A stretch of DNA of 29,625 nucleotides from positions 1 to 29,625 of the IMG/VR virus record IMGVR_UViG_3300025635_000120; one strand, given 5' to 3'. Positions within the stretch are counted from its first letter, which is position 1. Each line of letters begins with the position of its first letter. The notes beneath the pieces were generated by a model. That model saw nothing but the letters and a program-made list of their open reading frames with translations, was not told the DNA's origin and searched no databases. Positions 1 through 20,057 of this stretch are shown one piece after another. Made by a program: the position numbers and the translations under genes. Origin of the DNA: a virus. Its lineage: Duplodnaviria > Caudoviricetes.

Positions 1-306
1 TTCATTAGCCAACACATCCCAATCCCAATCACCGCCAGACACGTTGTCTTTGATAATGAACTCTTTTTGCTTATCCTCTGGCCAATCAACGACCGTCACA
101 GGTATCTCAGTCCAGCCGGCTTGCTGCATAGCTTTAAACCGCATATTGCCACCAAGTATTACATAATCTTTGTTGACCACGATCGGTCTGACCTCTGCCA
201 TTTCTGGGAAGTCTTTGAGGCTTTGGACTAATTTGCGAAAGTTCTCGTCCTTTATGTAGCGAGGGTTTTCAAGGTTGGGAACGATCTGTTCAGCTTTTAA
301 CTTCAT
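1..306 (-). CDS. ParB/Srx-like N-terminal domain protein (runs off window edge, 3' partial)
   Basis: Not in ORF track. Translated by hand from ATG 306: MKLKAEQIVPNLENPRYIKDENFRKLVQSLKDFPEMAEVRPIVVNKDYVILGGNMRFKAMQQAGWTEIPV... The NPR, PIVV and GGNMR motifs are typical of phage ParB-like proteins found next to terminase genes. Confidence 0.85.
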   Translation of the reverse strand, partial: MKLKAEQIVPNLENPRYIKDENFRKLVQSLKDFPEMAEVRPIVVNKDYVILGGNMRFKAMQQAGWTEIPVTVVDWPEDKQKEFIIKDNVSGGDWDWDVLANE

Positions 307-1147
307 TGATCAAATCCTTATACTCTTGTACGCTCTTACGACAGTCGTATTCAACCTTTACTATATCATAAATTGGGTCAATGTGCTTTTGCCTATCCTC
401 TGCCTGTATCAATTTGTCTATCTGTTCTGCAGTTTGGCAAACAGGTAAGCCACAGAGCTGGGCAATAACTGTCTTGTTCTCCGACTTCCATCTGTCCTCA
501 TGGCGGTAGCCTTTGGGCATAATGCAAATGTCAGCTTTCTGTATGTCGGTATAGAGCGTGTCCTGGTTGAACTTAATGTATTGGTACTTCTCCTGGTAGG
601 CTACCGAGTCGTTGGCATAGCGGTAAAGCATAGGGTCATCATTAGCGATGACAATTAGGCTAATGCCTCGTTTCTCAAGACTAGGTATAGCAGATTGCAA
701 AAGCTCCGCATTGTGGGCATAGCCAAACCATACTGCAGTTTTTAGCTCGCCATTGTGAACTTTTGGCTTCGGGAAATCCTCAATCACAAACCGGTCTTTA
801 ATAATCCGTACTGGCGTGTCCGTCATACCTTGTAGATAGTCACGCATTGATTCGGTCGGAACGACAGCAGCGTGAACGTTGTCTAGTGTCTCTTTGATAT
901 AGATGTCGGGGGTTTGCAGCCAGTCAGGGTCACAAGTATCAAGTATGCGAACACCTGGGTAATGGGCTGGGAGTTTGTAGTCGTAGGTGCAGTACACCTT
1001 TTGGAAGATCATTACATCAGCCTTTTCTCCGTATCTGTATAGACCAGATTCAGGCCAGAACTTATTGAGGTTATGAACCCTGATTCTTGTTGACCCAATA
1101 TCCTTTTTGTTGTGATACTGCTCAAATGTTTGCCATCGTACTACCAT
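290..1147 (-). CDS. Putative glycosyltransferase (GT-B/GT4-like)
   Basis: STRIR N-terminal motif, VWFG, ADICIMP and KSENK...LCGLPV C-terminal motifs. Located in the GT cluster. Confidence 0.65.
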   Translation of the reverse strand: MVVRWQTFEQYHNKKDIGSTRIRVHNLNKFWPESGLYRYGEKADVMIFQKVYCTYDYKLPAHYPGVRILDTCDPDWLQTPDIYIKETLDNVHAAVVPTESMRDYLQGMTDTPVRIIKDRFVIEDFPKPKVHNGELKTAVWFGYAHNAELLQSAIPSLEKRGISLIVIANDDPMLYRYANDSVAYQEKYQYIKFNQDTLYTDIQKADICIMPKGYRHEDRWKSENKTVIAQLCGLPVCQTAEQIDKLIQAEDRQKHIDPIYDIVKVEYDCRKSVQEYKDLINEVKS

Positions 1148-2220
1148 ATCTTGTCTACTCCATGCCAGACTGGTTTCTGGCCATTAGCCACCTTTTCTAT
1201 TATCTTGAACAGCTGCTTGTGATACCGTTCAACGTTGAATAGCTTTTGAGCTGTTTCTTTGCCCCGCCGCCCAATTGCTACCGTTTCTTGATAGTGTTTG
1301 TGGACTAGCTCATTGATAGTCTCAGCGTAGCTGTCGGGGTTGTCAGGCATAATAAAGCCATTTTTACCGCTTTGGATAAAGTCCTCTGCTCCGTGGTAGC
1401 GTGATGTCAGCACACAGCAACCAGACAACATAGCCTCTGTCCTCGCTCTTGGCATAGGACTGTCGAGTGTTGGGTTTATGTATATCAGGGAACGGCCGAG
1501 GAAGTCTCGGTAGTCATCCCAATCATGAGCTTTGTAATTTACCGTAATGTGCTGCACATCAATACCGGTACGCTCCTTAACCTTGAACTTTATGGCTGAG
1601 AGTAGTTGACGATTATAGTATTTGTCTAGCCCACCAGGGGAAATCATTACAGTCACACGAGGTTCTTTTGGTAGATCCCACCATTCGTCTGCAGTCATAC
1701 CGTGGATGATAGGATAGCCCCATCCCCATCGCTCCGCTGCCTCGTAGGAGTTCACAATCATGAAGTTATCACCAATCAGCTCTTTCATGCCCTTAACATG
1801 GACTTTTTCGCCCCGTGAGTTTATAGTATCGCCGCCGTTAATGACAGTCTCCTCATCATACATTTCTGCATACATGGGCGTACCATGATTGATCACTATC
1901 TTGGGTATGTCTTGGATGATCTCGTTCATCTGTTTATAGAGATAGCCCTTGCCAATATGCGGATTGACATGCTGCTGATCAACGTGCAACATCGCTATAT
2001 CATATTTGCCTGGCTCGTAATACTGTACATATTCAAATTCATCTTTGGTGTATATAGTCTCCGGAGCCGGACGAGGTGAAAACTTGTTCCATTTACGGAC
2101 GTTGTTCTCTAGCCAATAGAACTTAATAGGGTACTTTTTGGTGATCTTTAGCATATCGTACTGATTGCCCAAGTGGTTCAGTACCCCAAATACTTTGATC
2201 CTGTCTTTTTCTGGTGTCAT
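1141..2220 (-). CDS. Glycosyltransferase, GT-B fold (GT4-like)
   Basis: YINPT..SPMPRARTEAMLSGCCVLTS...IQSGKNGF motif. Start moved to ATG 2220, which overlaps the upstream stop (ATGA). Confidence 0.85.
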   Translation of the reverse strand: MTPEKDRIKVFGVLNHLGNQYDMLKITKKYPIKFYWLENNVRKWNKFSPRPAPETIYTKDEFEYVQYYEPGKYDIAMLHVDQQHVNPHIGKGYLYKQMNEIIQDIPKIVINHGTPMYAEMYDEETVINGGDTINSRGEKVHVKGMKELIGDNFMIVNSYEAAERWGWGYPIIHGMTADEWWDLPKEPRVTVMISPGGLDKYYNRQLLSAIKFKVKERTGIDVQHITVNYKAHDWDDYRDFLGRSLIYINPTLDSPMPRARTEAMLSGCCVLTSRYHGAEDFIQSGKNGFIMPDNPDSYAETINELVHKHYQETVAIGRRGKETAQKLFNVERYHKQLFKIIEKVANGQKPVWHGVDKIW

Positions 2221-3782
2221 CCCTCTAGCCCTGCCTTCCATAGCCAGTTTTTACTAGCCATTATTTCATATTTTTTACTTCTCTTGTTCGAGGACTTACC
2301 CTCTGGGGTGGCTTTTGCTGTTTCTGCATACTTTAGATCAAACCCTTGCCTCCTGGCTCGCAGCCGTGTCTCTTGGCTTAGTGCTCCGTACTGCTCGCAT
2401 CGTTCACTAAACATGCCAAAGGTAAAGAACTCATTGCGATTGATACAAGATATGTTCTCAATGAAATCCTTTTTTACGCCTTTGCTACCATATAGCCACT
2501 TCTTTGGCTCTAGGTTTTTCACAAACTCGTCGACACAATCCTTGTCCATAATCATACGCTGGTCACAGAACACTAATATGTCTGATGTAGCTTCGATGGC
2601 TGCGATGTTGCGGGCTTTGGCCAGGTTATATTTATCATCCCCCAGTCGTATGTAGCGGATAGGGATATTCGCTGTAAGGGCAATACTAGCAACTGTTTGG
2701 TGTTGAGGTTCTACCCCATCATCAACAACTAACAATTCGATGTTTGGGTATGTCTGGTTAAGTGCTGCGGTGAGGCATTTTGAGGTAACCTCTGGCTTAT
2801 TTGCTACTGGTATTACTATAGACACTGGTTCGCCTGGTGTCAGGCTACGATACAGCCGTTGATACATATACGCTCGGCGTTCAAAGTTACGGTCTTTTAT
2901 CTTTAGCCATGCCTCGTGCCTAACACGTTCAATACGCTTCTTATCTGCCAGCAATTCACTAATAAGCTCCTGTATGCGTATAACATCATCTGGGGCTTTG
3001 TCTTGAATCATTATGTTGTCGCCGTTCAAGATGTCGGGAACGTGACCAACTGGACGACTTATAACAGGAACGCCGCAGAATATAGCCTCAAGTACAGGCA
3101 TTGTGCCAGATTCAAACCCATCTACCGAGTTGCAAACTAATATACCTGCTTTGTAGTAGAGGGCTTTTAACTCATCATCAGTCACTTCTTGGGCAAACTC
3201 GACTGCTTGTGTAGCCATAACCTCTTGCCAGTAAGCCATATCTGATATAGCTCCGACTAGGTACATTTTAATACCGAGTGCCTTACATGCCAGAGCTACC
3301 GGCAATATGCCCTTCTTGCTCTCTATCCTGTTGGCTACCATGATAACTGAACGGTTGTACTCGTAGCTATCATTGAACGTCCACTGGTGGGGGTCTACAA
3401 CAATGGGGATTTTCTCCACTCGTGTTGTCGTGATTTGTTTGAGGTTGCCGTATATCTCGTTGTTGTTACCCACGTTGATCTGATAGTCGTTCCAATCGCT
3501 CTCTTTGATTGAGTAGGGATTGTTATGCGTGAGGATACTCGGGATGTCTTTTAACCACTCATAGTTTTTGCGTAACATCTCTGCCGTTCTAAAGTACTGG
3601 TAATCTATAACATCAGATGTCTGTGCAAGACTCAAGAACTCCTGTAGTTGCTCTGGTGACGGTCGCTTTGGGTGTACAGCCACAACATGATAGTCAATGT
3701 TTTGGTGATAAGGTTTTACACCTTGAGCCAAACGATCTAATGCTGTTCTCTCTTTGTCTACAACACACACTACCCTAAACAT
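2217..3782 (-). CDS. Bifunctional glycosyltransferase (N-terminal GT4-like + C-terminal GT2-like)
   Basis: E-x7-E motif (ESGTMPVLE) followed by AIFCGVPVISRPVG. Second domain has SIVIPV, LLVVDDG and ARNIAAIEATSDILVFCD. Confidence 0.9.
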   Translation of the reverse strand: MFRVVCVVDKERTALDRLAQGVKPYHQNIDYHVVAVHPKRPSPEQLQEFLSLAQTSDVIDYQYFRTAEMLRKNYEWLKDIPSILTHNNPYSIKESDWNDYQINVGNNNEIYGNLKQITTTRVEKIPIVVDPHQWTFNDSYEYNRSVIMVANRIESKKGILPVALACKALGIKMYLVGAISDMAYWQEVMATQAVEFAQEVTDDELKALYYKAGILVCNSVDGFESGTMPVLEAIFCGVPVISRPVGHVPDILNGDNIMIQDKAPDDVIRIQELISELLADKKRIERVRHEAWLKIKDRNFERRAYMYQRLYRSLTPGEPVSIVIPVANKPEVTSKCLTAALNQTYPNIELLVVDDGVEPQHQTVASIALTANIPIRYIRLGDDKYNLAKARNIAAIEATSDILVFCDQRMIMDKDCVDEFVKNLEPKKWLYGSKGVKKDFIENISCINRNEFFTFGMFSERCEQYGALSQETRLRARRQGFDLKYAETAKATPEGKSSNKRSKKYEIMASKNWLWKAGLEG

Positions 3783-4584
3783 ATTTGATCTCCTTCAAAT
3801 GCCCCAGCCCTGAGTACCCCCACTGGCTACGCTTTAAGTTTTGTATAGTTTTCTGCACATATTTCGGGTGGTCACTTAACGCTATCTGCTTTTGTGGCTT
3901 CTTGAACCGTCCTAGTGACATATTCAACCATTCAAAGTAGGCACTATCCTCTGTACCAAGTTTCGGTTCCTTGAAATGTTTGTGCCACGCACGAGCCATG
4001 CGGGTTACATCGTCTCTGATCTGTGCCTCGGTTTTGAGCAACTTCTCGTAATTATAGATAGGTATACGAGCCTCTGGCACATCAGAAGGGTCTATGTATT
4101 TGCCGTCTAATGAGGGTTGACATAGATCGCCACCAGAGTCAAAGCGTATACGATCTCCGTATACCTTCTTGTTTACTGCTATGACGAGTCTTGACTTGAG
4201 GTTATACCTATCGGGCAACGTAAACTGCCACTTGTAAAAACTCAGAGCCGGTGCGTCTGGGTTGTTCTCCATTGCCTGACGTATAGCAGTAAAGTCACCT
4301 TGATGGAATATGAAATCAACATCTGCATGGATGACCCAATCACCTGTAGCAGCCTCGTACCCACGTTGAAACTGCTGGCCAATGAACGGCCAATCAAAGT
4401 TTTGTGGCCATTTGTGGTGTACGATAGTCTCTTTGCCATCCCAATCGGACTCAGACATTGCTGTTCGGCTACCGTCTACAATTACCAACTCATCAGCTAA
4501 CTCTCGGTAACAGTCAAACGCATCTCGCCAGTTATCGCCTCGTTCCTCTGCATTGGTGACAGTGGTGAATATGGATAGCTTCAT
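3775..4584 (-). CDS. Glycosyltransferase family 2 (GT-A)
   Basis: LSIFT, ADELVIVDGS and ATGDWVIHADVD (DxD) motifs. Confidence 0.85.
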   Translation of the reverse strand: MKLSIFTTVTNAEERGDNWRDAFDCYRELADELVIVDGSRTAMSESDWDGKETIVHHKWPQNFDWPFIGQQFQRGYEAATGDWVIHADVDFIFHQGDFTAIRQAMENNPDAPALSFYKWQFTLPDRYNLKSRLVIAVNKKVYGDRIRFDSGGDLCQPSLDGKYIDPSDVPEARIPIYNYEKLLKTEAQIRDDVTRMARAWHKHFKEPKLGTEDSAYFEWLNMSLGRFKKPQKQIALSDHPKYVQKTIQNLKRSQWGYSGLGHLKEIKYV

Positions 4585-5123
4585 AGCTCGTTCAACCTCT
4601 CTGCTAATTCAAAGTCGTAGTTGTCTAGTTGTTTGCGTCTTGTCTTAACCAGTTTGACTGCTTCTAGGTCACTTTTGTATGCGTGTAGACCAACTATCCA
4701 GTTCGATGTCTCACATTTTCGAGGGTTGTGGAACTCATCTAGCCGAAACATCTGGCTCTCTGGTCTCTCGGCTTCCATAAATGTATCTATATTCTTGCGG
4801 AGTATTGGTAGTGCAGCCTTGCGAATAAATTGCACACCGCCATGACAAACGGCTTGCTGCAACCAATCCCACGTCTTAAACTGCGTCCATACCTTGTCGC
4901 CCTGGTGATAGACTACACTCTTACTATTTAAGGTCTTGTTGAGCACCACATCAGCGTCCACTCGTATAAAATCATCATCTGCTTGTTCATATATCTGTTT
5001 GAGCTTTTGTGCCAGAGTGGTGTTAGCATCTTGTATCAATACAGCTTCAAAGCCATTTCGCTCAACACTGTAGACACATAGGTCTGTTGTTGGCTCGCCT
5101 ACGCTAGTAATATACGCCTTCAT
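4581..5123 (-). CDS. Short GT-A/GT2-like protein
   Basis: FIRVDADVV DxD motif and cluster context. ATG 5123 overlaps the upstream stop. Confidence 0.6.
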   Translation of the reverse strand: MKAYITSVGEPTTDLCVYSVERNGFEAVLIQDANTTLAQKLKQIYEQADDDFIRVDADVVLNKTLNSKSVVYHQGDKVWTQFKTWDWLQQAVCHGGVQFIRKAALPILRKNIDTFMEAERPESQMFRLDEFHNPRKCETSNWIVGLHAYKSDLEAVKLVKTRRKQLDNYDFELAERLNEL

Positions 5124-5680
5124 TTTTTGAACTTCACAATCCAACCACTAAAATTGTGGTCTTGATGTTTAGCTGCTCTCAAACGTTCCGCTCGGATAGT
5201 TCTGTCCCATGCATCTGTCTCAAAGCGGCGGGGTATCATCTCCTCAATGGTCAGGCCAACAGATTGTGCTAGTTTCCTAATACCTCCAGGCATATAGCGA
5301 AGTGCGTCGTCCTCGACTGGTTGGTGTAAGGGATAGATACTAGGGAACGTCACCCATGCTACCCCACCGGTTATTAGTTGGTTTGCAATAGTAATAAACG
5401 CTTGCATGGGGTTATATACATAATCAAAGACCTCAAGACAAAAGACCAGATCATAACTGCCAAAGGGTTCGTAGACCAGGTTTAAGTCCATTTCTATGTC
5501 TGGCTTGGGGCTATCCTCGTGGGGTTCAGGTAGATCACTGATCGTGTACTGTTCAACGTCCCAGCTCCGAACACGCTTTGGCATCGTTACCTGGCTACCG
5601 CCAATATCTAGTACCTTCTCGGCCTTGACATCGAGACGTGACAACCAATCATTAAGCGACTGCCGGTAACTACTACTCAC
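5120..5680 (-). CDS. Class I SAM-dependent methyltransferase
   Basis: VLDIGG, YDLVFCLEVFDYV, L..GG and P.H..D.LRY motifs, of the type seen in sugar-cluster methyltransferases. GTG 5680 overlaps the upstream TGA; the track start is 5707. Confidence 0.85.
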   Translation of the reverse strand: MSSSYRQSLNDWLSRLDVKAEKVLDIGGSQVTMPKRVRSWDVEQYTISDLPEPHEDSPKPDIEMDLNLVYEPFGSYDLVFCLEVFDYVYNPMQAFITIANQLITGGVAWVTFPSIYPLHQPVEDDALRYMPGGIRKLAQSVGLTIEEMIPRRFETDAWDRTIRAERLRAAKHQDHNFSGWIVKFKK

Positions 5681-6720
5681 GACCACTCCTCGTGTCTCAT
5701 TGTCCACTCTAGAGTATTTTTTAGGCTCTCCTCAAATGGTACAGGCGGTTTCCAGCCCATATCGTCTAGCTTCTTGCCATCTAACCCATAGCGTCTATCA
5801 TGGCCTGGGCGAGCTGCGTGGAAGTCTACAAACTCATACTTAAGTTCTTTGTTCATTAGCTTGGCAATCAGTTGGGCTAGCTCTAAGTTCGTTAGCTCCT
5901 TCTCGCCCACTAGGTTGTATCTATCGGGCTGGTCGATATGGCCGTCCTGATGCAGGTAGGGTTTAGTATTCTTGAGGATAAATAATAGAGCGTCTGCGGT
6001 GTTGCGTGAGTGCATATAGAATCGTGAGCCGACCTTCTCTGGTGTGCCGTGGATAGTCACCGTCTCGCCCTTGAGTAATTTGCGTTGAATCATAGCAGGA
6101 AACTTGCTGGGTGCTTGTGTCTCGCCAAAGTTGTTCATAGTGTTTGTGATGATAAGCGGCACACCATATGTACGCCAATAGCTTATTGCATATGCCTCTT
6201 GGGCTGCTTTGCTGGCACTGTATGGGTTTGATGGCAGGATAGTTGACCACTCCTCATGTGAGTAGCCCTCGGGAGCAGCTCCATACACCTCATCGGTAGA
6301 GAACTGGATAAACACCTCTGGTTTTGTCTCTCTGGCATACTCGAGCATGGTGAGCATCAGGTCAGAGTTAGTCTTGATTGTATAGACTGGGTTAGTGATT
6401 GCTAGATCAACATCAGATATAGATGCGAGATTTATCACATAATCAATGTGACCTATATCACTCTTTTGCTTTTCGCCGATATTAGATACCAGATCGTGCT
6501 GAATAATTGTAAGCCGTGGCAGCCAATCGGGGTGGTTACGGCAAAAGGTTGTGATGCGGTCTTTGTAGCCCTTGTGTCGGAACGAGTCCAAACCAACAAT
6601 TTCCCAGTCTGTGTTATGCATAAAATGAGCCATAATGTGTACACCGATTGCCCCGCCTATACCGGTGATGAGTACTCGTTTTACCTTCTTGGGTTGTTCA
6701 TCCCACATATCATCGCTCAT
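5677..6720 (-). CDS. NDP-sugar 4,6-dehydratase (RmlB/dTDP-glucose 4,6-dehydratase-like extended SDR)
   Basis: ITGIGGAIG NAD-binding motif, STDEVYG, PSNPYSASK (YxxxK) and RPGHDRRY. Confidence 0.92.
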   Translation of the reverse strand: MSDDMWDEQPKKVKRVLITGIGGAIGVHIMAHFMHNTDWEIVGLDSFRHKGYKDRITTFCRNHPDWLPRLTIIQHDLVSNIGEKQKSDIGHIDYVINLASISDVDLAITNPVYTIKTNSDLMLTMLEYARETKPEVFIQFSTDEVYGAAPEGYSHEEWSTILPSNPYSASKAAQEAYAISYWRTYGVPLIITNTMNNFGETQAPSKFPAMIQRKLLKGETVTIHGTPEKVGSRFYMHSRNTADALLFILKNTKPYLHQDGHIDQPDRYNLVGEKELTNLELAQLIAKLMNKELKYEFVDFHAARPGHDRRYGLDGKKLDDMGWKPPVPFEESLKNTLEWTMRHEEWS

Positions 6721-7148
6721 AGTAACGCCTCCTTAATTTTAGTCCTATACGCCCTGGATGCTTGTATCCTACACGCTCTACATCCTCTCTGAAGTTTGTC
6801 TCTTCTGAGATACAGGTTATCCCCTCGGTATTTGTGTCCCTGTGGACATTTGGTCTTTTCCAGGTTTTTTTGGGCTAGTTTGGCTCCTGCTGTGCCTCTT
6901 TTGGCATTTTCTTGGGGCGTAACTGCTTCTAGATGATTGGGGTTGCAGCACGATCTGTTTCTACATAAATGATCTATTTGTAGACCCTTTGGTATCGAGC
7001 CAATATACATTTTATAACTAACTCTATGTGAATATTCCAACTTTTTGTTTATGTGAAACAGCCCGTAACCGCCTGGTGTTCTAGCTGCAATCCATTCCCA
7101 GCACCCATAGACATTAACCCTATATTTTGTGTTAAATCTATCTAACAT
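6717..7148 (-). CDS. HNH homing endonuclease
   Basis: CWEW..GYG..HRVSY..IDHLCRNRSCCNPNHLEAVT..EN motif, plus a C-terminal KTKCPQGH...CRAC Zn-binding tail. Start placed at MLDRF. Confidence 0.9.
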   Translation of the reverse strand: MLDRFNTKYRVNVYGCWEWIAARTPGGYGLFHINKKLEYSHRVSYKMYIGSIPKGLQIDHLCRNRSCCNPNHLEAVTPQENAKRGTAGAKLAQKNLEKTKCPQGHKYRGDNLYLRRDKLQRGCRACRIQASRAYRTKIKEALL

Positions 7149-7939
7149 AGTGCCTCTCGATACTGATCGCACATTCGCTCTAAACTTAAATCCTCTAGCT
7201 CCATGATCTCTGGTGCTCCACCTGTCTGCAAGCGTCCGTGTACATCTATAATCTCCATGCCACTGGCTCTAGCTTCAAGCAAGGTGTTGCTACATGCATC
7301 GTTGAGATAGGTATACAGAAAATACTTGTTTCGTTTCATGCTATCGACGAGTGAGGGTTGCTCACCCATGAACCTAAAGTTCTCGCCATTGTAGAAGTCA
7401 AAATTGTACTCGATATTCTCGCCCGAGAACTTGCCAACTATCTCTAGTGTGCCGATGTGGTTAACAAACCAGTACCATGCATCAATCCAGCCTTTGCCCT
7501 CGTCTCGTGAGCTACGAGCGTAGAGGTAGGAACTTTCTGGGGCGTGTCGGTTTTGGTCGTTATATACAGAGGTATCTATGCCATTTAAGATCACTACTCC
7601 GTCTTTTTTGGTAAATGGTAGTAGGAACTTTCTAGCCCACTGGCTTTGGTAGATGATAGTATCGGCCATGTCAGCAAAGTCTTTGAGGCGTGTCATACCC
7701 GTGTTACGATTATTGGAATTGCGGATTGCGTTGTCTACCCTAAGAACTATCTTTTTACCGTCTGCCTGTGCCTGTTGGACTTCGGCTCTCTGCACCATAC
7801 TGGCAGATGTAATGAAGTAATGTGTTGCTTCGGCATAGTCTTGGGTAATAAGATCGCCTATGCCTTTCACGAAGTTTCTGGCAAATGTCCAGCCACCACC
7901 TTTACGTTCAGGCTCATAATTAGCGAGATAGATTTTCAC
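7142..7939 (-). CDS. Glycosyltransferase, GT4-like
   Basis: GGGWTF, ADTIIYQSQW, VILNGID and DACSNTLLEARASG motifs. Confidence 0.85.
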   Translation of the reverse strand: MKIYLANYEPERKGGGWTFARNFVKGIGDLITQDYAEATHYFITSASMVQRAEVQQAQADGKKIVLRVDNAIRNSNNRNTGMTRLKDFADMADTIIYQSQWARKFLLPFTKKDGVVILNGIDTSVYNDQNRHAPESSYLYARSSRDEGKGWIDAWYWFVNHIGTLEIVGKFSGENIEYNFDFYNGENFRFMGEQPSLVDSMKRNKYFLYTYLNDACSNTLLEARASGMEIIDVHGRLQTGGAPEIMELEDLSLERMCDQYREALC

Positions 7940-8486
7940 TCAAAAACTCCTCGAACTCATCCCAAAGTTCATATTTGTTTAACTCCCAGGAGTGCATCCA
8001 CAGTTCGACATCCTCTACTGTATCTTTGATAGATTTGTAATATTCACGCCAGGGTATATTGTTGTTTGCTCCACTGTTTGGGTGAACATGGACTAAACCA
8101 CGACCTCGTGTTAGGCGTTGGCTATCATATATCTGGTGTGTGAAGGTGGATAGACTTGGTGTGGTATAGCCTCGTGGTGGGCAGAACTTTGTAACCTTTG
8201 TGTTAAACAACGCTTCGAGTTGGAATTTTGATTCCATGATCTCACGCTCTGCTACATCATCATGCAAGTTAGTTAGGTGTCTATGTGTGACTGTATGGGA
8301 GCCTATCTCAAAGCGATTAGCAATATAACACGCCTCATCGTAGGTCAACGGGTTATAGCCTGAGTCATACGCTAGAGACTGCCATTCAACTGGCCAGTAG
8401 AACGTACACTCAAGCTCGTACTTCTCGGCAATAGCAGCGACACGAACATCGCTTGCACACCCATCGTCGCAACTAAGCCTTATCAT
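7920..8486 (-). CDS. Polysaccharide deacetylase (NodB/CE4 fold)
   Basis: LSCDDG, EIGSHTVTH, FCPPRG and LWMHSWE motifs. Confidence 0.9.
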   Translation of the reverse strand: MIRLSCDDGCASDVRVAAIAEKYELECTFYWPVEWQSLAYDSGYNPLTYDEACYIANRFEIGSHTVTHRHLTNLHDDVAEREIMESKFQLEALFNTKVTKFCPPRGYTTPSLSTFTHQIYDSQRLTRGRGLVHVHPNSGANNNIPWREYYKSIKDTVEDVELWMHSWELNKYELWDEFEEFLSENLSR

Positions 8487-9294
8487 TGAGTTTTCTGTGC
8501 CCTTTGTTTAGATTTATGACGGTTTTAAACAGTTTAGCCATATCATCTGCACCCACCAACTTTGCATAGGCCGCAAGTGCCGGAACGTCTTTATCCCAAC
8601 ATTTACTAGCCCAGCCTCTATTGTGCCGTACAGCTCTGAGATGCATAGAATCAGTCCTGGGGTCTGACTGCCACGCTTGGTGTATGTTTATGAAGCTGGT
8701 ATCTGATTTCTGTGCGAGGCTTAATAGGGTATTGATAAACGTAACCTTAAGTGCACCATAGCTATTCTCGACCAGCTTTGTGATCTCGGCTTCAAGAGCG
8801 GTAACAACATGTATATCTACATCCGGCGACATCCTAGACCATAGAACCTCGGCGGCTTCATCGGCAACTTCTTTTTCACCGCCCACTACTAGCATGGAGT
8901 GTAAGCGTGGATCTGACTGGTCTGGGTACTTCCAGAAGTGTACTGGATAGTTACCCTCTCCAACATACTCGACTGATACGGCGATACGTTTCTTGTATTT
9001 TTTGACAAGCATATCTGTTGTGCCTGGCATCAACGCTGACTTGATAATTATAAGCGGACAGTCTATCCAGCTAACTACATCCTCGACGATAGAAATATCA
9101 AGGCTACCGTCTTTGTTATGAGGAGTGAACACAGCCACGATTGCAACATCACACTTATTAACTGCTGCTTTGCCCTTCTCTTCGTTCTCTTCATCGGCAA
9201 ACAGGAATTTTGGCGGGTCGTAGACTAATGCCTCTGGGAACATTTTGCTATACGACTGACCGACCTTACCAAACCCTACTATTGCTACCTTCAT
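8473..9294 (-). CDS. UDP-glucose/GDP-mannose dehydrogenase family protein (short, lacks C-terminal domain)
   Basis: VGFGKVG, AVFTP, IIKS..PGTT, EAEITKLVEN and GWASKCWDKD (variant of the catalytic GGxCxxKD). Confidence 0.85.
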   Translation of the reverse strand: MKVAIVGFGKVGQSYSKMFPEALVYDPPKFLFADEENEEKGKAAVNKCDVAIVAVFTPHNKDGSLDISIVEDVVSWIDCPLIIIKSALMPGTTDMLVKKYKKRIAVSVEYVGEGNYPVHFWKYPDQSDPRLHSMLVVGGEKEVADEAAEVLWSRMSPDVDIHVVTALEAEITKLVENSYGALKVTFINTLLSLAQKSDTSFINIHQAWQSDPRTDSMHLRAVRHNRGWASKCWDKDVPALAAYAKLVGADDMAKLFKTVINLNKGHRKLNDKA

Positions 9295-9593
9295 ACTGCC
9301 TCCATTGTAAATTGCTTATTATCTGGTGTGAGTAACTGACTTTTGATTTTATCCATCTGACCACCCGTTGCATGAATGACTAGCTCATCTATCCTCCCCG
9401 CTTCCTTTGCTGCTAAACGATTGTCATTGCCACACCTACATTCAAAACCCCATGTACCATCTGGGCGTAGCCTAGCAGCCAATATGTTTGTCTGTAGTTC
9501 CCTCTCCTGTGCTGTTACATAACGTTCGTCTAGGATAGTAAGCACATCAGATTCTTTGCATTTGAGACAAGTTACTTTGTATTTCTTTGTCAT
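9291..9593 (-). CDS. Small Zn-finger protein, first gene of the glycan/late operon
   Basis: CLKC...CRC cysteine pairs. Preceded by AAGGGCAGCC-ATG and a promoter. Confidence 0.7.
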   Translation of the reverse strand: MTKKYKVTCLKCKESDVLTILDERYVTAQERELQTNILAARLRPDGTWGFECRCGNDNRLAAKEAGRIDELVIHATGGQMDKIKSQLLTPDNKQFTMEAV

Positions 9594-9622
9594 GGCTGCC
9601 CTTATTTAAGTGTCGTACTAGT

Positions 9623-9651
9623 AATTTACCACTAGCAATTCAAGAACTCAA
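9623..9651 (-). promoter_or_regulatory. sigma70-type promoter of the glycan operon
   Basis: TTGAGT (9651-9646), 17 bp spacer, TAAATT (9628-9623) with extended TG. Confidence 0.6.
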
Positions 9652-9659
9652 TACTAATC

Positions 9660-9668
9660 TTATCCACA
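9660..9668 (+). promoter_or_regulatory. Perfect DnaA box
   Basis: TTATCCACA, intergenic, 8 bp upstream of the -35 of the glycan-operon promoter. Confidence 0.55.
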
Positions 9669-9716
9669 GGCAATAGCACCCTCTGTCCCTCTAAAGCAGG
9701 GGCTGGGGGTTGATGA

Positions 9717-9921
9717 CCTGAGTGCTACTGATGTAGTTGAACCCGATTCGTATGCAGCGATGCATGAATCCTTTGATATGTCCCTTGATAGAACTACTCT
9801 CAGTCTTTGCTTGTGTACTCATTAGAGTCGCTGTTGTCAGGGCAGACAGAGCAGCGGTTCTGAGAATACACAATCCGGCAGTTTTGTTTTCTGATGGGCT
9901 GCGAACCATCCAGCACCCAGG
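9717..9921 (-). ncRNA. Candidate multibranched structured RNA, family unknown
   Basis: Nested helices at 9717-9726/9912-9921, 9727-9738/9792-9804, 9745-9770, 9811-9820/9864-9873, 9829-9833/9852-9856 and 9893-9897/9906-9910. Mismatches become G-U pairs only on the minus strand. Confidence 0.6.
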
Positions 9922-9952
9922 TTTTTAAAGTACTGTGTGCTTATTTTCTGTG

Positions 9953-9981
9953 TTGACAAATAGATGTTCATACGCTACATT
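9953..9981 (+). promoter_or_regulatory. sigma70-type promoter for a short RNA
   Basis: TTGACA (9953-9958), 17 bp spacer, TACATT (9976-9981). Confidence 0.7.
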
Positions 9982-9985
9982 TAGT

Positions 9986-10024
9986 GTGAAGCGTTGAGCA
10001 ACCCACCCTAACCGGTGGGTTTTT
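9986..10024 (+). ncRNA. Candidate ~40-nt antisense RNA
   Basis: Lies between the promoter and an immediate terminator hairpin. Its 5' GAAGCGTTGAGCAA is repeated at 10037-10050. Confidence 0.55.
10000..10024 (+). terminator. Rho-independent terminator
   Basis: AACCCACC-ctaacc-GGTGGGTT followed by a T run. Confidence 0.75.
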
Positions 10025-10062
10025 CTATTTGCTAGCGAAGCGTTAAGCAAACAGTGATCGTA

Positions 10063-10091
10063 ACTATAAACAAAAAACCCTGCTGATGCAA
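10063..10091 (-). promoter_or_regulatory. sigma70-type promoter convergent with the 9953 promoter
   Basis: TTGCAT (10091-10086), 17 bp spacer, TATAGT (10068-10063). Confidence 0.6.
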
Positions 10092-10095
10092 GGTT
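10068..10095 (-). terminator. Rho-independent terminator
   Basis: AACCUUGC-AUCA-GCAGGGUU followed by UUUUGUUU on the minus strand. A T run also follows on the plus strand. Confidence 0.7.
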
Positions 10096-10186
10096 CTTTT
10101 TCTGTGTCAGAGGCTAGCTGTTATTCTTACCGGTACGTTACGTTTACGCTCTCGGTAAGTGTCATAATGTTACGCATAACACTAGC
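10070..10186 (-). ncRNA. Candidate ~115-nt small RNA
   Basis: Bounded by a near-consensus promoter and a terminator. Helices at 10113-10124/10176-10186 and 10126-10132/10153-10159. Confidence 0.55.
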
Positions 10187-10189
10187 TAC

Positions 10190-10218
10190 ATTGTAGCATA
10201 CCTCTTATGTTATGTCAA
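10190..10218 (-). promoter_or_regulatory. Near-consensus sigma70-type promoter
   Basis: TTGACA (10218-10213), 17 bp spacer, TGc-TACAAT (10195-10190). Overlapped by the palindrome GCTACA-T-TGTAGC (10185-10197). Confidence 0.75.
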
Positions 10219-10230
10219 GCCCTTTGGCAC

Positions 10231-10293
10231 TAAAATAGCCAGGGATTAAAGGTGGGCAACCATATACGATAAAATAGTATACTCCCTGGCTAC
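10231..10293 (-). ncRNA. Candidate ~60-nt hairpin RNA with anti-start-codon loop
   Basis: Perfect 10-bp inverted repeat 10236-10245/10283-10292. Extended -10 TGgTATTAT at 10308-10300, 3' UAUUUU, loop AUGGUUGCCCACCUUUAA. Confidence 0.55.
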
Positions 10294-10355
10294 CTCGTAA
10301 TAATACCACAAATATATAGTGACAAATATCACAGAAAGAATGTAGCATAAAAGGC

Positions 10356-10384
10356 TTGCATCCATGTGGCGTAAGTAGTATGAT
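10356..10384 (+). promoter_or_regulatory. Early operon promoter
   Basis: TTGCAT (10356-10361), 17 bp spacer, TATGAT (10379-10384). Confidence 0.7.
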
Positions 10385-10418
10385 AGGGGTACAATCAAGT
10401 AAATGCAGGAGGGCAACC

Positions 10419-10484
10419 ATGCAAACAATCAATATAAAACTAATACCTCGGGTCGCCTACAGAGTCCGTGTGAGGGTGTTCTAA
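10419..10484 (+). CDS. 21-aa leader peptide MQTINIKLIPRVAYRVRVRVF
   Basis: Preceded by AGGAGGGCAACC-ATG. Its stop overlaps the next start (TAATG). Confidence 0.6.
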   Translation: MQTINIKLIPRVAYRVRVRVF

Positions 10485-10657: not shown

Positions 10658-11268
10658 CAGATACAATAGTAACTGTATTGCAAAAGATACAGACCGAGAT
10701 TAAAGCTCCAAAGTCTCAACAGGGTCGCTTTGGTAAGAGTCGTTCCGCAGAGGACATCATTGCCCAAGCTAAGCCAATACTTGCAAAGCATGGTGCAGCA
10801 ATAACCCTAGCAGATGAGATAGTACAGGTAGGAGAACGCAACTATATCAAAGCCACAGCTTGTCTCCGCTGGAACGAATCAGTGTTAGAAGTCCATGGAT
10901 GGGCATGGGAGGGTGAGTTGAACCGAGGGCTAGACGCAAGCCAGGTTACAGGTATGGCAAGCTCATACGCCCGTAAGTACGCTATGGGTGGCTTGTTCGC
11001 CCTAGACGACACTAAAGATGCAGACGGCCATATGGACGCACCTGTATCTAACCTAGCCAAAGCCAAAGATGCAGACGGCCATATGGACGCACCTGTATCT
11101 AACCTAGCCAAAGCCAAAGACGCACTCAACAAGGAGTTTGAGCGATACGGGCATACAACCGATGAAGCAAAAAAGAAAATCATTGACACTGTAATAGGCA
11201 AGGCAAAGATTGACACAGAAGCAGAAGTTGATGCGGTCATGCAAGCACTTGAGGATGGACTAGTATGA
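10654..11268 (+). CDS. erf: ERF family single-strand annealing recombinase
   Basis: RSAEDI..KP, YIKATA and SQVTGMASSYARKYAMGGLF.LDDTKDAD signature. Confidence 0.9.
   Translation: MTDTIVTVLQKIQTEIKAPKSQQGRFGKSRSAEDIIAQAKPILAKHGAAITLADEIVQVGERNYIKATACLRWNESVLEVHGWAWEGELNRGLDASQVTGMASSYARKYAMGGLFALDDTKDADGHMDAPVSNLAKAKDADGHMDAPVSNLAKAKDALNKEFERYGHTTDEAKKKIIDTVIGKAKIDTEAEVDAVMQALEDGLV
11014..11120 (+). repeat. Exact 51-bp tandem duplication (17 aa) in erf
   Basis: Units start at 11014 and 11065; partial AAAGA at 11116. Encodes KDADGHMDAPVSNLAKA twice. Confidence 0.95.
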
Positions 11269-15764: not shown

Positions 15765-16156
15765 TTGAACGTATGTGCACCGGTTGTGGCACTACATTCG
15801 TGCAGTACAACTCCCTGCAAAAGAAGTGTGGTAAGTGTGCATACAACCTCAACGCCAAGCCCAAGAAGCCGATGAAGCGTATGGGTAAGGTCGGCAAGCA
15901 ATGGGTATCTGACCGGAACGAGTGGATAAGCAACCACCCGCCATCCCATGAGGGCTACTGGTACTGTGTGATCGGCGGCGGAGCTTTGACTATAGATACA
16001 TTAACTATAGACCACGATATCAGCCGAGGTCGTGACCAGTCCAAGCGAAGCGACCAGGACAATTTACAGCCTATGTGTGGCTTTCACAATGGCGACAAGG
16101 GCAGTTTATCCACAGCTGAGTATCTGTTAAAGAGGCCAGACTTAAAATGTCGTTGA
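15761..16156 (+). CDS. HNH endonuclease with N-terminal Zn finger
   Basis: CTGC..CGKC, then TIDH...NLQPMCGFHNGDKG. AAGGAGG RBS, GTG start. Confidence 0.85.
   Translation: MIERMCTGCGTTFVQYNSLQKKCGKCAYNLNAKPKKPMKRMGKVGKQWVSDRNEWISNHPPSHEGYWYCVIGGGALTIDTLTIDHDISRGRDQSKRSDQDNLQPMCGFHNGDKGSLSTAEYLLKRPDLKCR
16106..16114 (+). promoter_or_regulatory. Perfect DnaA box (within HNH 3' end)
   Basis: TTATCCACA about 40 bp upstream of the 16153 promoter. Confidence 0.4.
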
Positions 16157-16181
16157 CATAGTATACCGCTTGTGCTAGTAT
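16153..16181 (+). promoter_or_regulatory. sigma70-type promoter
   Basis: TTGACA, 17 bp spacer, TGc-TAGTAT. Confidence 0.7.
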
Positions 16182-16212
16182 GTAGTTGTACTACTAAAAA
16201 GAAAGGGCAACC

Positions 16213-16419
16213 ATGCAGTACGAAGAAACACCAATAAAAACAAAAGTAACAGCCAAAGACAACGCTCTCAAAGAGCTTGCAAGGCTCGGAACTCTTAGCA
16301 TCCTATGGTTCATAGTGAAGCGGCACAAGGTCGGTCTACTAGCAACTTGGGCTGTGATAATGACAGCGTTGGTAGTATGTCCACCGCTACCACAGATCAT
16401 CATTGGCTTGATGGTGTAA
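16213..16419 (+). CDS. Small membrane protein
   Basis: Preceded by AAAGGGCAACC-ATG; hydrophobic C-terminal half. Confidence 0.7.
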   Translation: MQYEETPIKTKVTAKDNALKELARLGTLSILWFIVKRHKVGLLATWAVIMTALVVCPPLPQIIIGLMV

Positions 16420-16440
16420 TATATACACAGATGCGTTTTT

Positions 16441-16750
16441 TGCGAGCACCTGAACGTTAACAACTTGCATAGATAGAATTGGTGAGTAGTAGTTCGTGCA
16501 GGGGGCAGACATGCTTCAGAGAATGACACCCTGGGTTAGATATACGTGGAGTGAGTAAGCTTGAAGCTTGGCGTATATCGGCTGGAATAATGCCGCAGCC
16601 TGTGCAACGAGGCTCAATAGAGTTACAGGGTAGCTGGTATGGGAGGCGAGCAATCGCCAATTAGACGGAAACGTCAGCATTTTACGGCCTAGTATCAGTC
16701 CTGTAGCTCACATGTAAGATTTATGACTGATGTGGAGTCGTTCATAAATA
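16441..16750 (+). ncRNA. Candidate large structured ncRNA, family unknown
   Basis: Helices at 16539-16546/16572-16579, 16597-16601/16610-16614, 16620-16629/16700-16709, 16634-16640/16692-16698 and 16719-16726/16742-16749. GNRA hairpins GGCGA-GCAA-TCGCC and GACG-GAAA-CGTC. Confidence 0.65.
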
Positions 16751-16784
16751 AGAAAAAGACCCGTCCAGCTTCGGGTCTTTTTCT
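16751..16784. terminator. Bidirectional Rho-independent terminator
   Basis: AGAAAAAGACCCG-8 nt-CGGGTCTTTTTCT, between convergent transcription units. Confidence 0.9.
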
Positions 16785-16884
16785 ATGTATTTGTTTTGTA
16801 CGCAAATAGGTGGTTACCAACGATCTATGATTGGGAGAACACAAAGGTGCGTGCTGGTACTCTAGTTATACGCTTACGGTTATT

Positions 16885-19548: not shown

Positions 19549-19577
19549 TTGACATTGTGGCATAAGTAGAATAGACT
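19549..19577 (+). promoter_or_regulatory. Promoter of the moron gene
   Basis: TTGACA, 17 bp spacer, TAGACT. ATG is 9 bp downstream (near-leaderless). Confidence 0.7.
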
Positions 19578-19586
19578 GTAGTCACT

Positions 19587-20057
19587 ATGAAGAAATTACT
19601 TATCACATCAGCAGTTCTGTTATCAGTTACAGGTATAGGTTCTTATGGACTAACCCACAACAGTGCCCAGTCAGAAGACAATACACCTCAACGTGTAGAC
19701 CAGTTAGAAGGTCAGGTAGAGAATCACGAAGCTCGCATCACTAATACAGAAGCAGACGTAACAGATTTGCAAGAAAGCACGGGGACTCCACCTAGCTCTC
19801 AACGTACAGAAGTGCCGCAGTCAACACCTCAGAGCGAATCTCCACAGCCACCTACCCAACCGGAAGCTGCACCGGTTACGGTTGTGGCGTATGAGATACA
19901 GCCTATACCTGGTACAGAGAATGAGAACTGCAAATACACCTACTCAGATGGAACAAGCAAAGTATTCCTATGGCGTACTGTTGAATACAATCAAATCCGT
20001 GTGATTCACACTAGCGGAACATGTGATTCTAGGGTTATTGGTATGGTTAAGACCTAA
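19587..20057 (+). CDS. Moron: exported or membrane-anchored protein
   Basis: MKK plus hydrophobic signal, coiled coil, P/Q/S/T linker, small Cys-pair domain. Opposite strand within the tail module, with its own promoter. Confidence 0.8.
   Translation: MKKLLITSAVLLSVTGIGSYGLTHNSAQSEDNTPQRVDQLEGQVENHEARITNTEADVTDLQESTGTPPSSQRTEVPQSTPQSESPQPPTQPEAAPVTVVAYEIQPIPGTENENCKYTYSDGTSKVFLWRTVEYNQIRVIHTSGTCDSRVIGMVKT

Follow-up and report, generated by a model that had tools for sequence, protein, structure and literature searches.

Which element controls a phage when no repressor gene is found where its early and late arms diverge is the question raised by positions 9594 to 10418 of a tailed-phage sequence of 29,625 nucleotides (nt), IMG/VR record IMGVR_UViG_3300025635_000120. 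This whole stretch, termed the window, comprises the entire contig, yet a partial genome, of an HK97-like siphophage. A preliminary description had proposed that a cluster of small RNAs (sRNAs) stands here in place of a CI repressor as an RNA-only genetic switch. Comparison with relatives upholds RNA-run control insofar as two antisense pairs keep their complementarity across otherwise unrelated sequences; the bistable switch and the temperate lifestyle were not borne out. The pairs are sRNA-R with the leaders of several operons, and sRNA1 with a long target transcript, the latter pair being termed module A. Judged from sequence, antisense pairing in both systems is very probably real. The relatives (~25 phages) were gathered using the 100-amino-acid (aa) protein at the head of the late arm and the tail tube protein as queries. 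Most family records are fragments; G006, which has terminal repeats, was taken as complete. Two near-copies of G000 and locus L099 were not counted as independent, and the tree was built without G002, G020 and G021, which have no full tail protein. Both ends of the contig are bridged by the near-identical record G002, giving a missing gap of ~9.1 kb and a genome total of ~38.7 kb.

The predicted repressor RNA, sRNA-R, is ~60 nt long (10235..10293, minus strand) and consists of a stem, an inner hairpin, a loop seed and a short U tail. The closing stem of 11 base pairs (bp) joins 10293-10283 to 10245-10235, and the loop seed at 10263-10251 is the complement of the ribosome binding site (RBS) and start codon at 10407-10421. 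The predicted promoter (10300..10310, minus strand) is an extended -10 element, TG-n-TATTAT, with no clear -35. It is identical in the relative G001 and stands back to back with the early-arm promoter (10356..10384, plus strand, TTGCAT-17-TATGAT, 8/12), which is also identical in G001. The first target (10407..10421, plus strand) is the RBS and start of the first early open reading frame (ORF), a 13/14 repeat with 10250-10263 that gives the strongest duplex of 50 starts. This ORF is a 21-codon leader heading the early operon (10419..10484, plus strand; identical in G001, no PHROG match). Its stop codon overlaps the following start, as happens again at each of the five junctions after it, so that with the first six junctions of the early operon overlapping, blocking one RBS could silence the operon. 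The second target lies behind a second early promoter (16153..16215 for both, plus strand, TTGACA-17-TAGTAT), where a copy of the word at 16205-16215 covers the start, at 16213, of a 68-aa membrane ORF. The third (9591..9602, minus strand, one G-U pair) is the RBS and start of the 100-aa gene that heads the glycosyltransferase or late arm (start 9593). The targets are the first genes after the three main promoters (10419, 16213 and 9593) and rank 1-3 of 50 starts in duplex energy. All 17 of 17 sRNA-R pairs are kept in G001, five with changed letters and one compensatory, a comparison of two sequences in which a shuffle control cannot discriminate.

A search of leaders against upstream sequence recovered the same design with different words in other genomes. 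A gene-less copy of the word lies inside a GC-rich stem in 14 records, and this extra copy is always enclosed by a stem of 6-14 bp. The stem is immediately preceded by a -10 box (at least 5/6), on the antisense strand in 10/14 records and on the sense strand in one, a rule that holds also for the flipped cassettes of G019 and G038. The word is genome-specific and common to at least two promoter-led operon heads in 9/12. The own leader was the best partner in 9/12 rows, or 10/12 counting G019 and G038, which have one common word. Opening of the loop costs 1.6-6.1 kcal/mol, leaving a net binding of -8 to -17 kcal/mol; in this survey the stem of G033 was mis-picked and counted as a miss, the correct stem having been found in the earlier comparison. 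A strict detector found sRNA-R in 10/27 family records, at a maximum of one locus per record, and in 0 of 62 control leaders; it misses the window and G001, having taken an upstream ATG. The pattern of words, stems and -10 boxes suggests that sRNA-R is likely to repress translation of operon-head genes. No antirepressor was identified. In 5/11 records, the window not among them, the sRNA-R and early promoters are separated by a DnaA-like box, a possible input for a switch.

The regulator of module A, sRNA1, is a predicted countertranscript of ~40 nt (9988..10027, plus strand) composed of a 14-nt 5' seed (9988-10001) and a terminator hairpin (10000-10021), and is preceded by the promoter 9953..9981 (plus strand, TTGACA-17-TACATT). 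Its partner is a predicted long non-coding transcript (9660..10056, minus strand) that contains a structured block closed by 9921-9912 / 9726-9717 and is driven by the promoter 10063..10091 (minus strand, TTGCAT-17-TATAGT), which overlaps the terminator of a further predicted RNA, sRNA2. Both promoters are kept in G001. The long transcript begins with a 5' hairpin (10025..10054, minus strand), the 5' arm and loop of which (10050-10037) complement the sRNA1 seed at 13/14 positions plus a G-U pair. The seed 14-mer thus recurs at 10037-10050, and a repeat of such quality was found in 0/40 shuffles of the region. Both seed copies are changed in G001 to a different common 10-mer, and in close relatives the segment 9672-10046 is replaced by other sequence. 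The long transcript carries two target copies flanking a hairpin, at 10050-10037 and 10001-9988 (minus strand), the second just 3' of the reverse terminator hairpin, as is also the case in relatives with convergent layout.

Module A recurs with unrelated seeds in 17 records: 15 units analysed, from a scan of promoter-terminator units in all family loci, together with G038 and G015, the unit of G015 having been found by eye. The own target was best in 15/15 rows and 13/15 columns (-18.8 vs -6.1 ± 2.7 kcal/mol), in units that were selected for having a repeat and among which G006 and G013 have one seed in common. The partner promoter lies 39-49 nt before the target in 13/15 units, and the target falls inside a 5' hairpin in 11/15 folds. 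The seed repeat is direct where the promoters are convergent or divergent and inverted where they are in tandem, the orientation that RNA pairing requires. Since the match is kept in all three layouts, it reflects more than mere overlap. A strict two-promoter detector found module A in 14/27 family records, at a maximum of one locus each, and in 0/51 control loci (84 promoter pairs).

Module A occupies a slot between homologous flanks that is filled differently in other members of the family. In G018 the slot holds a lambda-O-like initiator (PHROG, E 3e-12) and in G005, its sister (support 100/100), module A and a 98-codon ORF; G009 and G010 have module A without the ORF, and the slot differs also between the sisters G019 and G038. 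An initiator is encoded by G021 too, again with no module A match, which makes two Rep-bearing records (G018 and G021) without module A. None of the module A-bearing records matched those two Rep proteins, and no Rep match was obtained in the window or the ~9.1-kb gap. Because of this position, filling the initiator slot between homologous flanks, we consider that module A on balance probably controls replication, with its long RNA as a candidate replication primer or origin-activating RNA. In four records the target transcript codes for a mini-protein of ~100 aa, starting at the -35 of the sRNA (L084:3198-3494, L181:6807-7100, L206:13484-13807 and L211:14445-14744). All four of these ORFs contain 3-5 short DNA repeats in the 5' half, like the iteron-like repeats of both Rep genes. 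Two of the mini-proteins have RepB/RepA C-terminal, DnaD-like and helicase-loader domains as their closest named Atlas clusters (0.76-0.81), to be taken only as leads. The L206 mini-protein belongs to a large viral group without a name in the ESM Atlas (30 clusters, top scores 0.94-0.95). DNA polymerase I is present in 59/61 genomes of the order of one bin holding a family member, the likely host group. The GC skew of the complete G006 is flat with no switch, which is uninformative for a unidirectional origin. In G023 the replication slot (L197:1050-1760) has three DnaA boxes and neither a module A nor a Rep match, and is possibly a DnaA-dependent origin, a fourth type.

The absence of a recognisable repressor or integrase, on which the preliminary description had rested, was confirmed by Pfam and PHROG scans, which returned no integrase or helix-turn-helix (HTH) repressor match in the window. 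Nothing repressor- or replication-like was found among the 52 window ORFs, 77 further small ORFs and the ORFs of G006 that were scanned. The search of the rest of the genome gave the same result, with no such gene in the complete relative G006 and no CI-like or integrase match in the ~9.1-kb gap as read from G002. Tyrosine integrase was absent from 12/12 plus 25/25 virus records searched, and HTH_3 was above the cut-off in 0/20 records. Serine recombinases were sought only through full Pfam scans of the window and G006, not family-wide.

The description of 9594-10418 as lacking a credible protein gene also held, the ORFs there having no Pfam or PHROG match (four tested in Pfam and PHROGs, four more in PHROGs); a 72-aa ORF of the region has no counterpart in G001. 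The five promoters described (9651-, 9953+, 10091-, 10218- and 10356+) are all present. With a threshold of 9/12 only 9953+ (10/12) and 10218- (11/12, best of 55 sites in the window) pass, the other three scoring 8/12 each. Taken alone, promoter density in the region is not above chance (4 sites vs 6.2 ± 2.4 expected), nor is the terminator count (2 vs 2.6 ± 1.7). All five promoters are nonetheless credible since all recur in G001. Both terminators (10000-10021+ and 10099-10072-) are likewise present. The four structured RNAs stood as regards folding, with z-scores of -3.1 (9986-10030+), -5.1 (10186-10066-), -3.0 (10300-10225-) and -4.0 (10058-9660-), although sRNA2 has no detectable target. 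The sRNA2 unit (10072..10218, minus strand) comprises the strongest promoter in the window (10218-10190), a folded RNA of ~110 nt, which is the one with the z-score of -5.1, and the terminator at 10099-10072. G001 retains the unit, with two of its sequence blocks exchanged in position. A target search gave only chance matches of 10-12 nt, and sRNA2 may insulate or feed the long transcript of module A, the promoter of which its terminator overlaps.

The DnaA box was found as described, at 9660-9668, 8 bp upstream of the -35 of the promoter of the late or glycosyltransferase arm (9651-9623; the two together 9623..9668, minus strand). A DnaA-like box precedes the late-arm promoter in 5/5 records checked, including two with module A far away. 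The box as a mark of an origin was rejected, as it travels with promoters even far from the RNA module; an apparent likeness to the ColE1 origin near 9660-9680 was dropped, being explained by the flanks of the box. Hammerhead, tmRNA and 6S readings, judged by eye, had no Rfam support. A search of Rfam gave no match in the region (window, E <= 1) and nothing relevant in seven relative loci at the gathering threshold, and blastn of the region against 50,697 phage records and against plasmids gave no real match. A DNA pattern scan with the promoter and hairpin of the window found 54 loci, of which only two, already known, are in the family; the primary sequence is not conserved. Four sequencing runs guessed to be RNA cover only neighbouring genes and give no evidence either way.

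The explanation that we regard as best, in which we place about as much belief as doubt, is an RNA-governed, plasmid-like prophage without repressor or integrase proteins; plasmid-like lysogeny taken by itself is a fair question that we would answer with slightly more doubt than belief. With sRNA-R and sRNA1 both transcribed, sRNA-R would block translation of the operon heads at 10419, 16213 and 9593 by pairing across their Shine-Dalgarno sequences and start codons, a role like that of CI but exerted at translation rather than transcription. Lost coupling of the overlapping genes would spread the block along the operon. For its part, sRNA1 would open and refold the 5' hairpin of the 10056- transcript, helped by the second target copy, and so block primer formation in the window and translation of a mini-initiator in the four relatives. 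The phage would then persist as a plasmid-like prophage under sRNA1-limited replication, and the genome-specific seeds would define immunity and incompatibility groups. A fuller version is doubtful, namely that a family of phages of Patescibacteria maintains lysogeny without any regulatory protein, with one trans-acting ~60-nt RNA as master repressor and immunity determinant of all lytic operons, an RNA-primed plasmid prophage whose copy number is set by a ~40-nt countertranscript, and immunity and incompatibility groups that arise from co-evolving seeds.

Several observations weigh against the RNA-governed prophage. As regards sRNA-R, the G001 seed has a mismatch at the start codon, and sRNA-R was not found in five records (G005, G009, G010, G018 and G023). 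Four of these are also without an HTH_3 match, and sRNA-R is therefore not obligatory. Nested co-folding of full sRNA-R with leaders gave a gain of ~0 kcal/mol, so that binding needs loop-initiated pairing, which a nested model cannot draw. The module A units and the detector thresholds were chosen after seeing the family, and the controls hold fewer leaders (62 vs 219). The long RNA has no conserved sequence or fold (z +1.0 to -2.4, 12 records), no G-tract bias (12 records), no plasmid match and no iteron-like repeats (window and G001). In the window it runs into the late arm and other roles fit; in four records an HNH or GIY-YIG-like ORF follows module A, the GIY-YIG label being our own reading of the sequence. 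The mini-protein has no Pfam, PHROG, PDB or BFVD match at E <= 0.001, homologues of greater length were not found, and fold searches with its model (predicted local distance difference test 77) gave no match at E <= 0.001. The window shows no sign of a partition system. Small Arc/ribbon-helix-helix repressors could be missed, and G021 has an HTH/Arc-like early protein (L191:12740-13282), part of which is 94% identical to a 67-aa segment in G001 (L081:5011-5211); the segment sits inserted in an early gene and is absent from the window.

Among the other explanations, a purely lytic phage with neither a dormant state nor a switch is rather unlikely; sRNA-R would then be a Cro-like device for timing or feedback, or would exclude superinfecting kin, and module A would control lytic replication. 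The lack of an integrase and of a visible partition system fits such a phage, as do the five records without sRNA-R, the phage-only nature of the metagenome-assembled contigs checked, and the reading of an integrase-less patescibacterial phage as lytic (bioRxiv 10.1101/2024.03.08.584096). It is difficult to reconcile with the match of sRNA-R to the head gene of the late arm, which a damper acting late in infection should not silence. Plasmid replicons are the usual setting for antisense copy-number control with hypervariable seeds, which is not readily accounted for in a replicon that replicates only in a burst. Moreover, as would be expected of a lysogenic-conversion gene, the secreted-type gene at 19587 is under a strong promoter of its own and lacks the target word.

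Leaving sRNA-R unchanged, module A could instead be an attenuator or leader switch for the downstream late arm, an HNH nuclease or a small toxic protein, akin to P4 CI/seqA-seqC or type I toxin-antitoxin systems, which we consider improbable. The two target copies flank a hairpin in the long transcript like seqA and seqC (PMC4825925), in the window, G001 and G004 the transcript leads into the late arm, nuclease-like ORFs follow in the four records already mentioned, and conserved primer-like features are lacking. On the other hand, the downstream neighbour varies among phages, the late arm has its own promoter, and between sisters a Rep gene takes the place of module A. A simple leader is also difficult to square with G006 and G013, where the transcript meets a convergent gene and the same strand offers nothing to regulate. 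Very improbable is the explanation that no RNA pairing takes place, the hairpins being ordinary terminators and the repeats DNA operators for an unrecognised small protein of phage or host. Operators can take the form of repeats at transcription starts and RBSs, many small ORFs belong to no family, G021 encodes an HTH/Arc-like protein, and binding of the comparable cluster K word by RNA or by protein was left open by Pope et al. (PMC3203893). Operators would not account for an extra copy that is always in a 6-14-bp stem, for a -10 box that tracks the antisense strand even in flipped cassettes, or for a module A repeat whose orientation follows promoter layout as RNA pairing demands. The words are also non-palindromic and genome-specific with no co-varying protein identified, and the differences between seed and target are G-U compatible.

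Kinship with the P4 CI, P1 C4 and P22 Sar RNAs, named as precedents in the preliminary description, found no support, there being no match to their Rfam covariance models in the window (E <= 1) or in the seven relative loci. In P4 an RNA is the immunity factor, pairs with two leader sites and shuts off replication genes (PMC4825925). Like the seqA/seqC leader of P4, the long transcript of module A in convergent layout has two target copies in one leader. Unlike CI RNA, which is processed from its target transcript and causes termination, sRNA1 and sRNA-R have their own predicted promoters. A further difference is the predicted action of sRNA-R in trans, at the RBSs of several operon heads. P22 Sar is an antisense RNA with which the phage keeps a lytic regulator from being expressed. 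The same is described for the C4 antisense RNA of P1/P7 (PMC8198154), listed in Rfam as RF01695 (PMC2864571). C4 and Sar each assist a protein repressor (C1 or c2) and act on a single antirepressor operon, whereas here there is no match to a protein repressor or antirepressor and every main operon is a predicted target at its head.

Module A resembles the ColE1 scheme, in which a small countertranscript, RNA I, acts on the 5' end of the primer RNA II (PMC7157519), in that a small antisense RNA is complementary to the 5' end of a longer transcript. It differs in an RNA of ~40 nt with a 10-14-nt seed and a duplicated target instead of a full-length antisense, and in its tandem and divergent layouts; no sequence match to plasmid replicons and no conserved primer fold or G-rich tract were found. 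Other countertranscript replicons (R1 CopA/CopT, pT181, pIP501 and ColIb-P9 Inc) have the rep leader as target and variable loops that give specificity. In non-RepA prophages of cluster A mycobacteriophages, which are integrase-less, the slot that otherwise holds the Rep gene is filled by a non-coding RNA region (Wetzel et al. 2020, PMC7157519), and here too a non-coding region stands in the rep slot of a phage without an integrase match. The accessible portion of that source describes no antisense regulator. Unlike in cluster A phages with parABS (PMC7157519), no such cassette lies beside the region. The only Par-like gene is a fusion of ParB and methyltransferase, which in G002 precedes the terminase. 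A protein repressor is a further gene that cluster A phages encode.

The words of sRNA-R find a parallel in the start-associated sequence (SAS) of cluster K mycobacteriophages, which differs from phage to phage, covers the RBS of non-structural genes and occurs in 11-19 copies; in four genomes a single reversed copy lies away from any gene start (PMC3203893). The role of that reversed copy was still open in 2024 (PMC11373665). Both systems have a repeated non-palindromic word over several RBSs and one gene-less copy. With unrelated sequence and 2-3 operon heads instead of 11-19 copies, sRNA-R would work like SAS without being a member. Cluster K phages, unlike those here, have an integrase and a repressor, and the accessible portions of PMC3203893 and PMC11373665 propose no antisense RNA. 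By analogy, the reversed SAS copy in the four cluster K genomes could be an antisense gene like that of sRNA-R. In divergent type I toxin-antitoxin systems (tisB/istR type) the antitoxin RNA is dedicated to one small hydrophobic toxin. The sRNA-R system does not conform to that type, as the first genes differ among relatives and several operons have the word in common. No description of the system was found in the literature searched; subscription papers were outside its scope, and the tables of candidate RNAs in PMC10690425 could contain the motifs.

Temperate phages are recognised by their CI and integrase genes. If the RNA-governed prophage is real, phages of this kind would be scored as lytic and lysogeny in Patescibacteria would be undercounted. 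A primary repressor RNA acting on several operons would then go beyond P4, P1 and P22, where the RNA acts on one leader. The seed and target pairs are short, exist in many orthogonal versions and are amenable to testing in a laboratory host. Module A is a candidate replicon for Patescibacteria, for which, to our knowledge, few genetic tools exist, and the design of sRNA-R suggests a testable explanation for the puzzling reversed copy of SAS among cluster K mycobacteriophages.

A patescibacterial host is likely from ten sequence matches in bacterial genome bins, five titled Saccharibacteria or Saccharimonadales and five from other taxa. Integrated prophages were found in 5/401 genomes and belong to a more distant group with no match to the module A and sRNA-R detectors. 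The window contains head, tail and lysis genes. Rightward from 10419 the early arm encodes Erf, a methyltransferase, HNH and many proteins with no assignment; leftward from 9593 runs the late arm. This is headed by a 9-kb cluster of glycosyltransferase, nucleoside diphosphate (NDP)-sugar and deacetylase genes (290-9593, minus strand), which may glycosylate the virion or the host surface and which lies before the terminase in longer relatives. The ~9.1-kb gap, read from G002, encodes the ParB-methyltransferase, the large terminase, the portal and five ORFs without an informative PHROG match, one of which is probably the small terminase.

The gene for a conserved CxxC...CxC protein (9291-9593, minus strand; 31 homologues, no Pfam match) belongs to the tail region of most relatives; in the window and G001 it has moved and now heads the late arm. 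The Erf gene contains a 51-nt tandem duplication (11014-11115, 17 aa) that G001 is without. A second non-coding region (16420-16800, plus strand), well folded over ~330 nt, lies 3' of the last early gene and has a bidirectional terminator at its end. Both ends are kept in G001, where an insertion scores as a tRNA (L081:199-332, Rfam 43.6 bits). The 156-aa signal-peptide/coiled-coil gene at 19549-20057 (plus strand), set against the tail operon under its own strong promoter and without the sRNA-R word, is a candidate superinfection-exclusion or lysogenic-conversion gene. One sub-clade has a convergent pair of promoter-terminator units after the lysis genes, with no seed repeats (L180:4791-5002, L194:1960-2172, L203 and L205). 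At L090:12116-12230 a promoter-terminator RNA carries a sense copy of the leader of a leftward gene at 12680- and is a possible decoy RNA.

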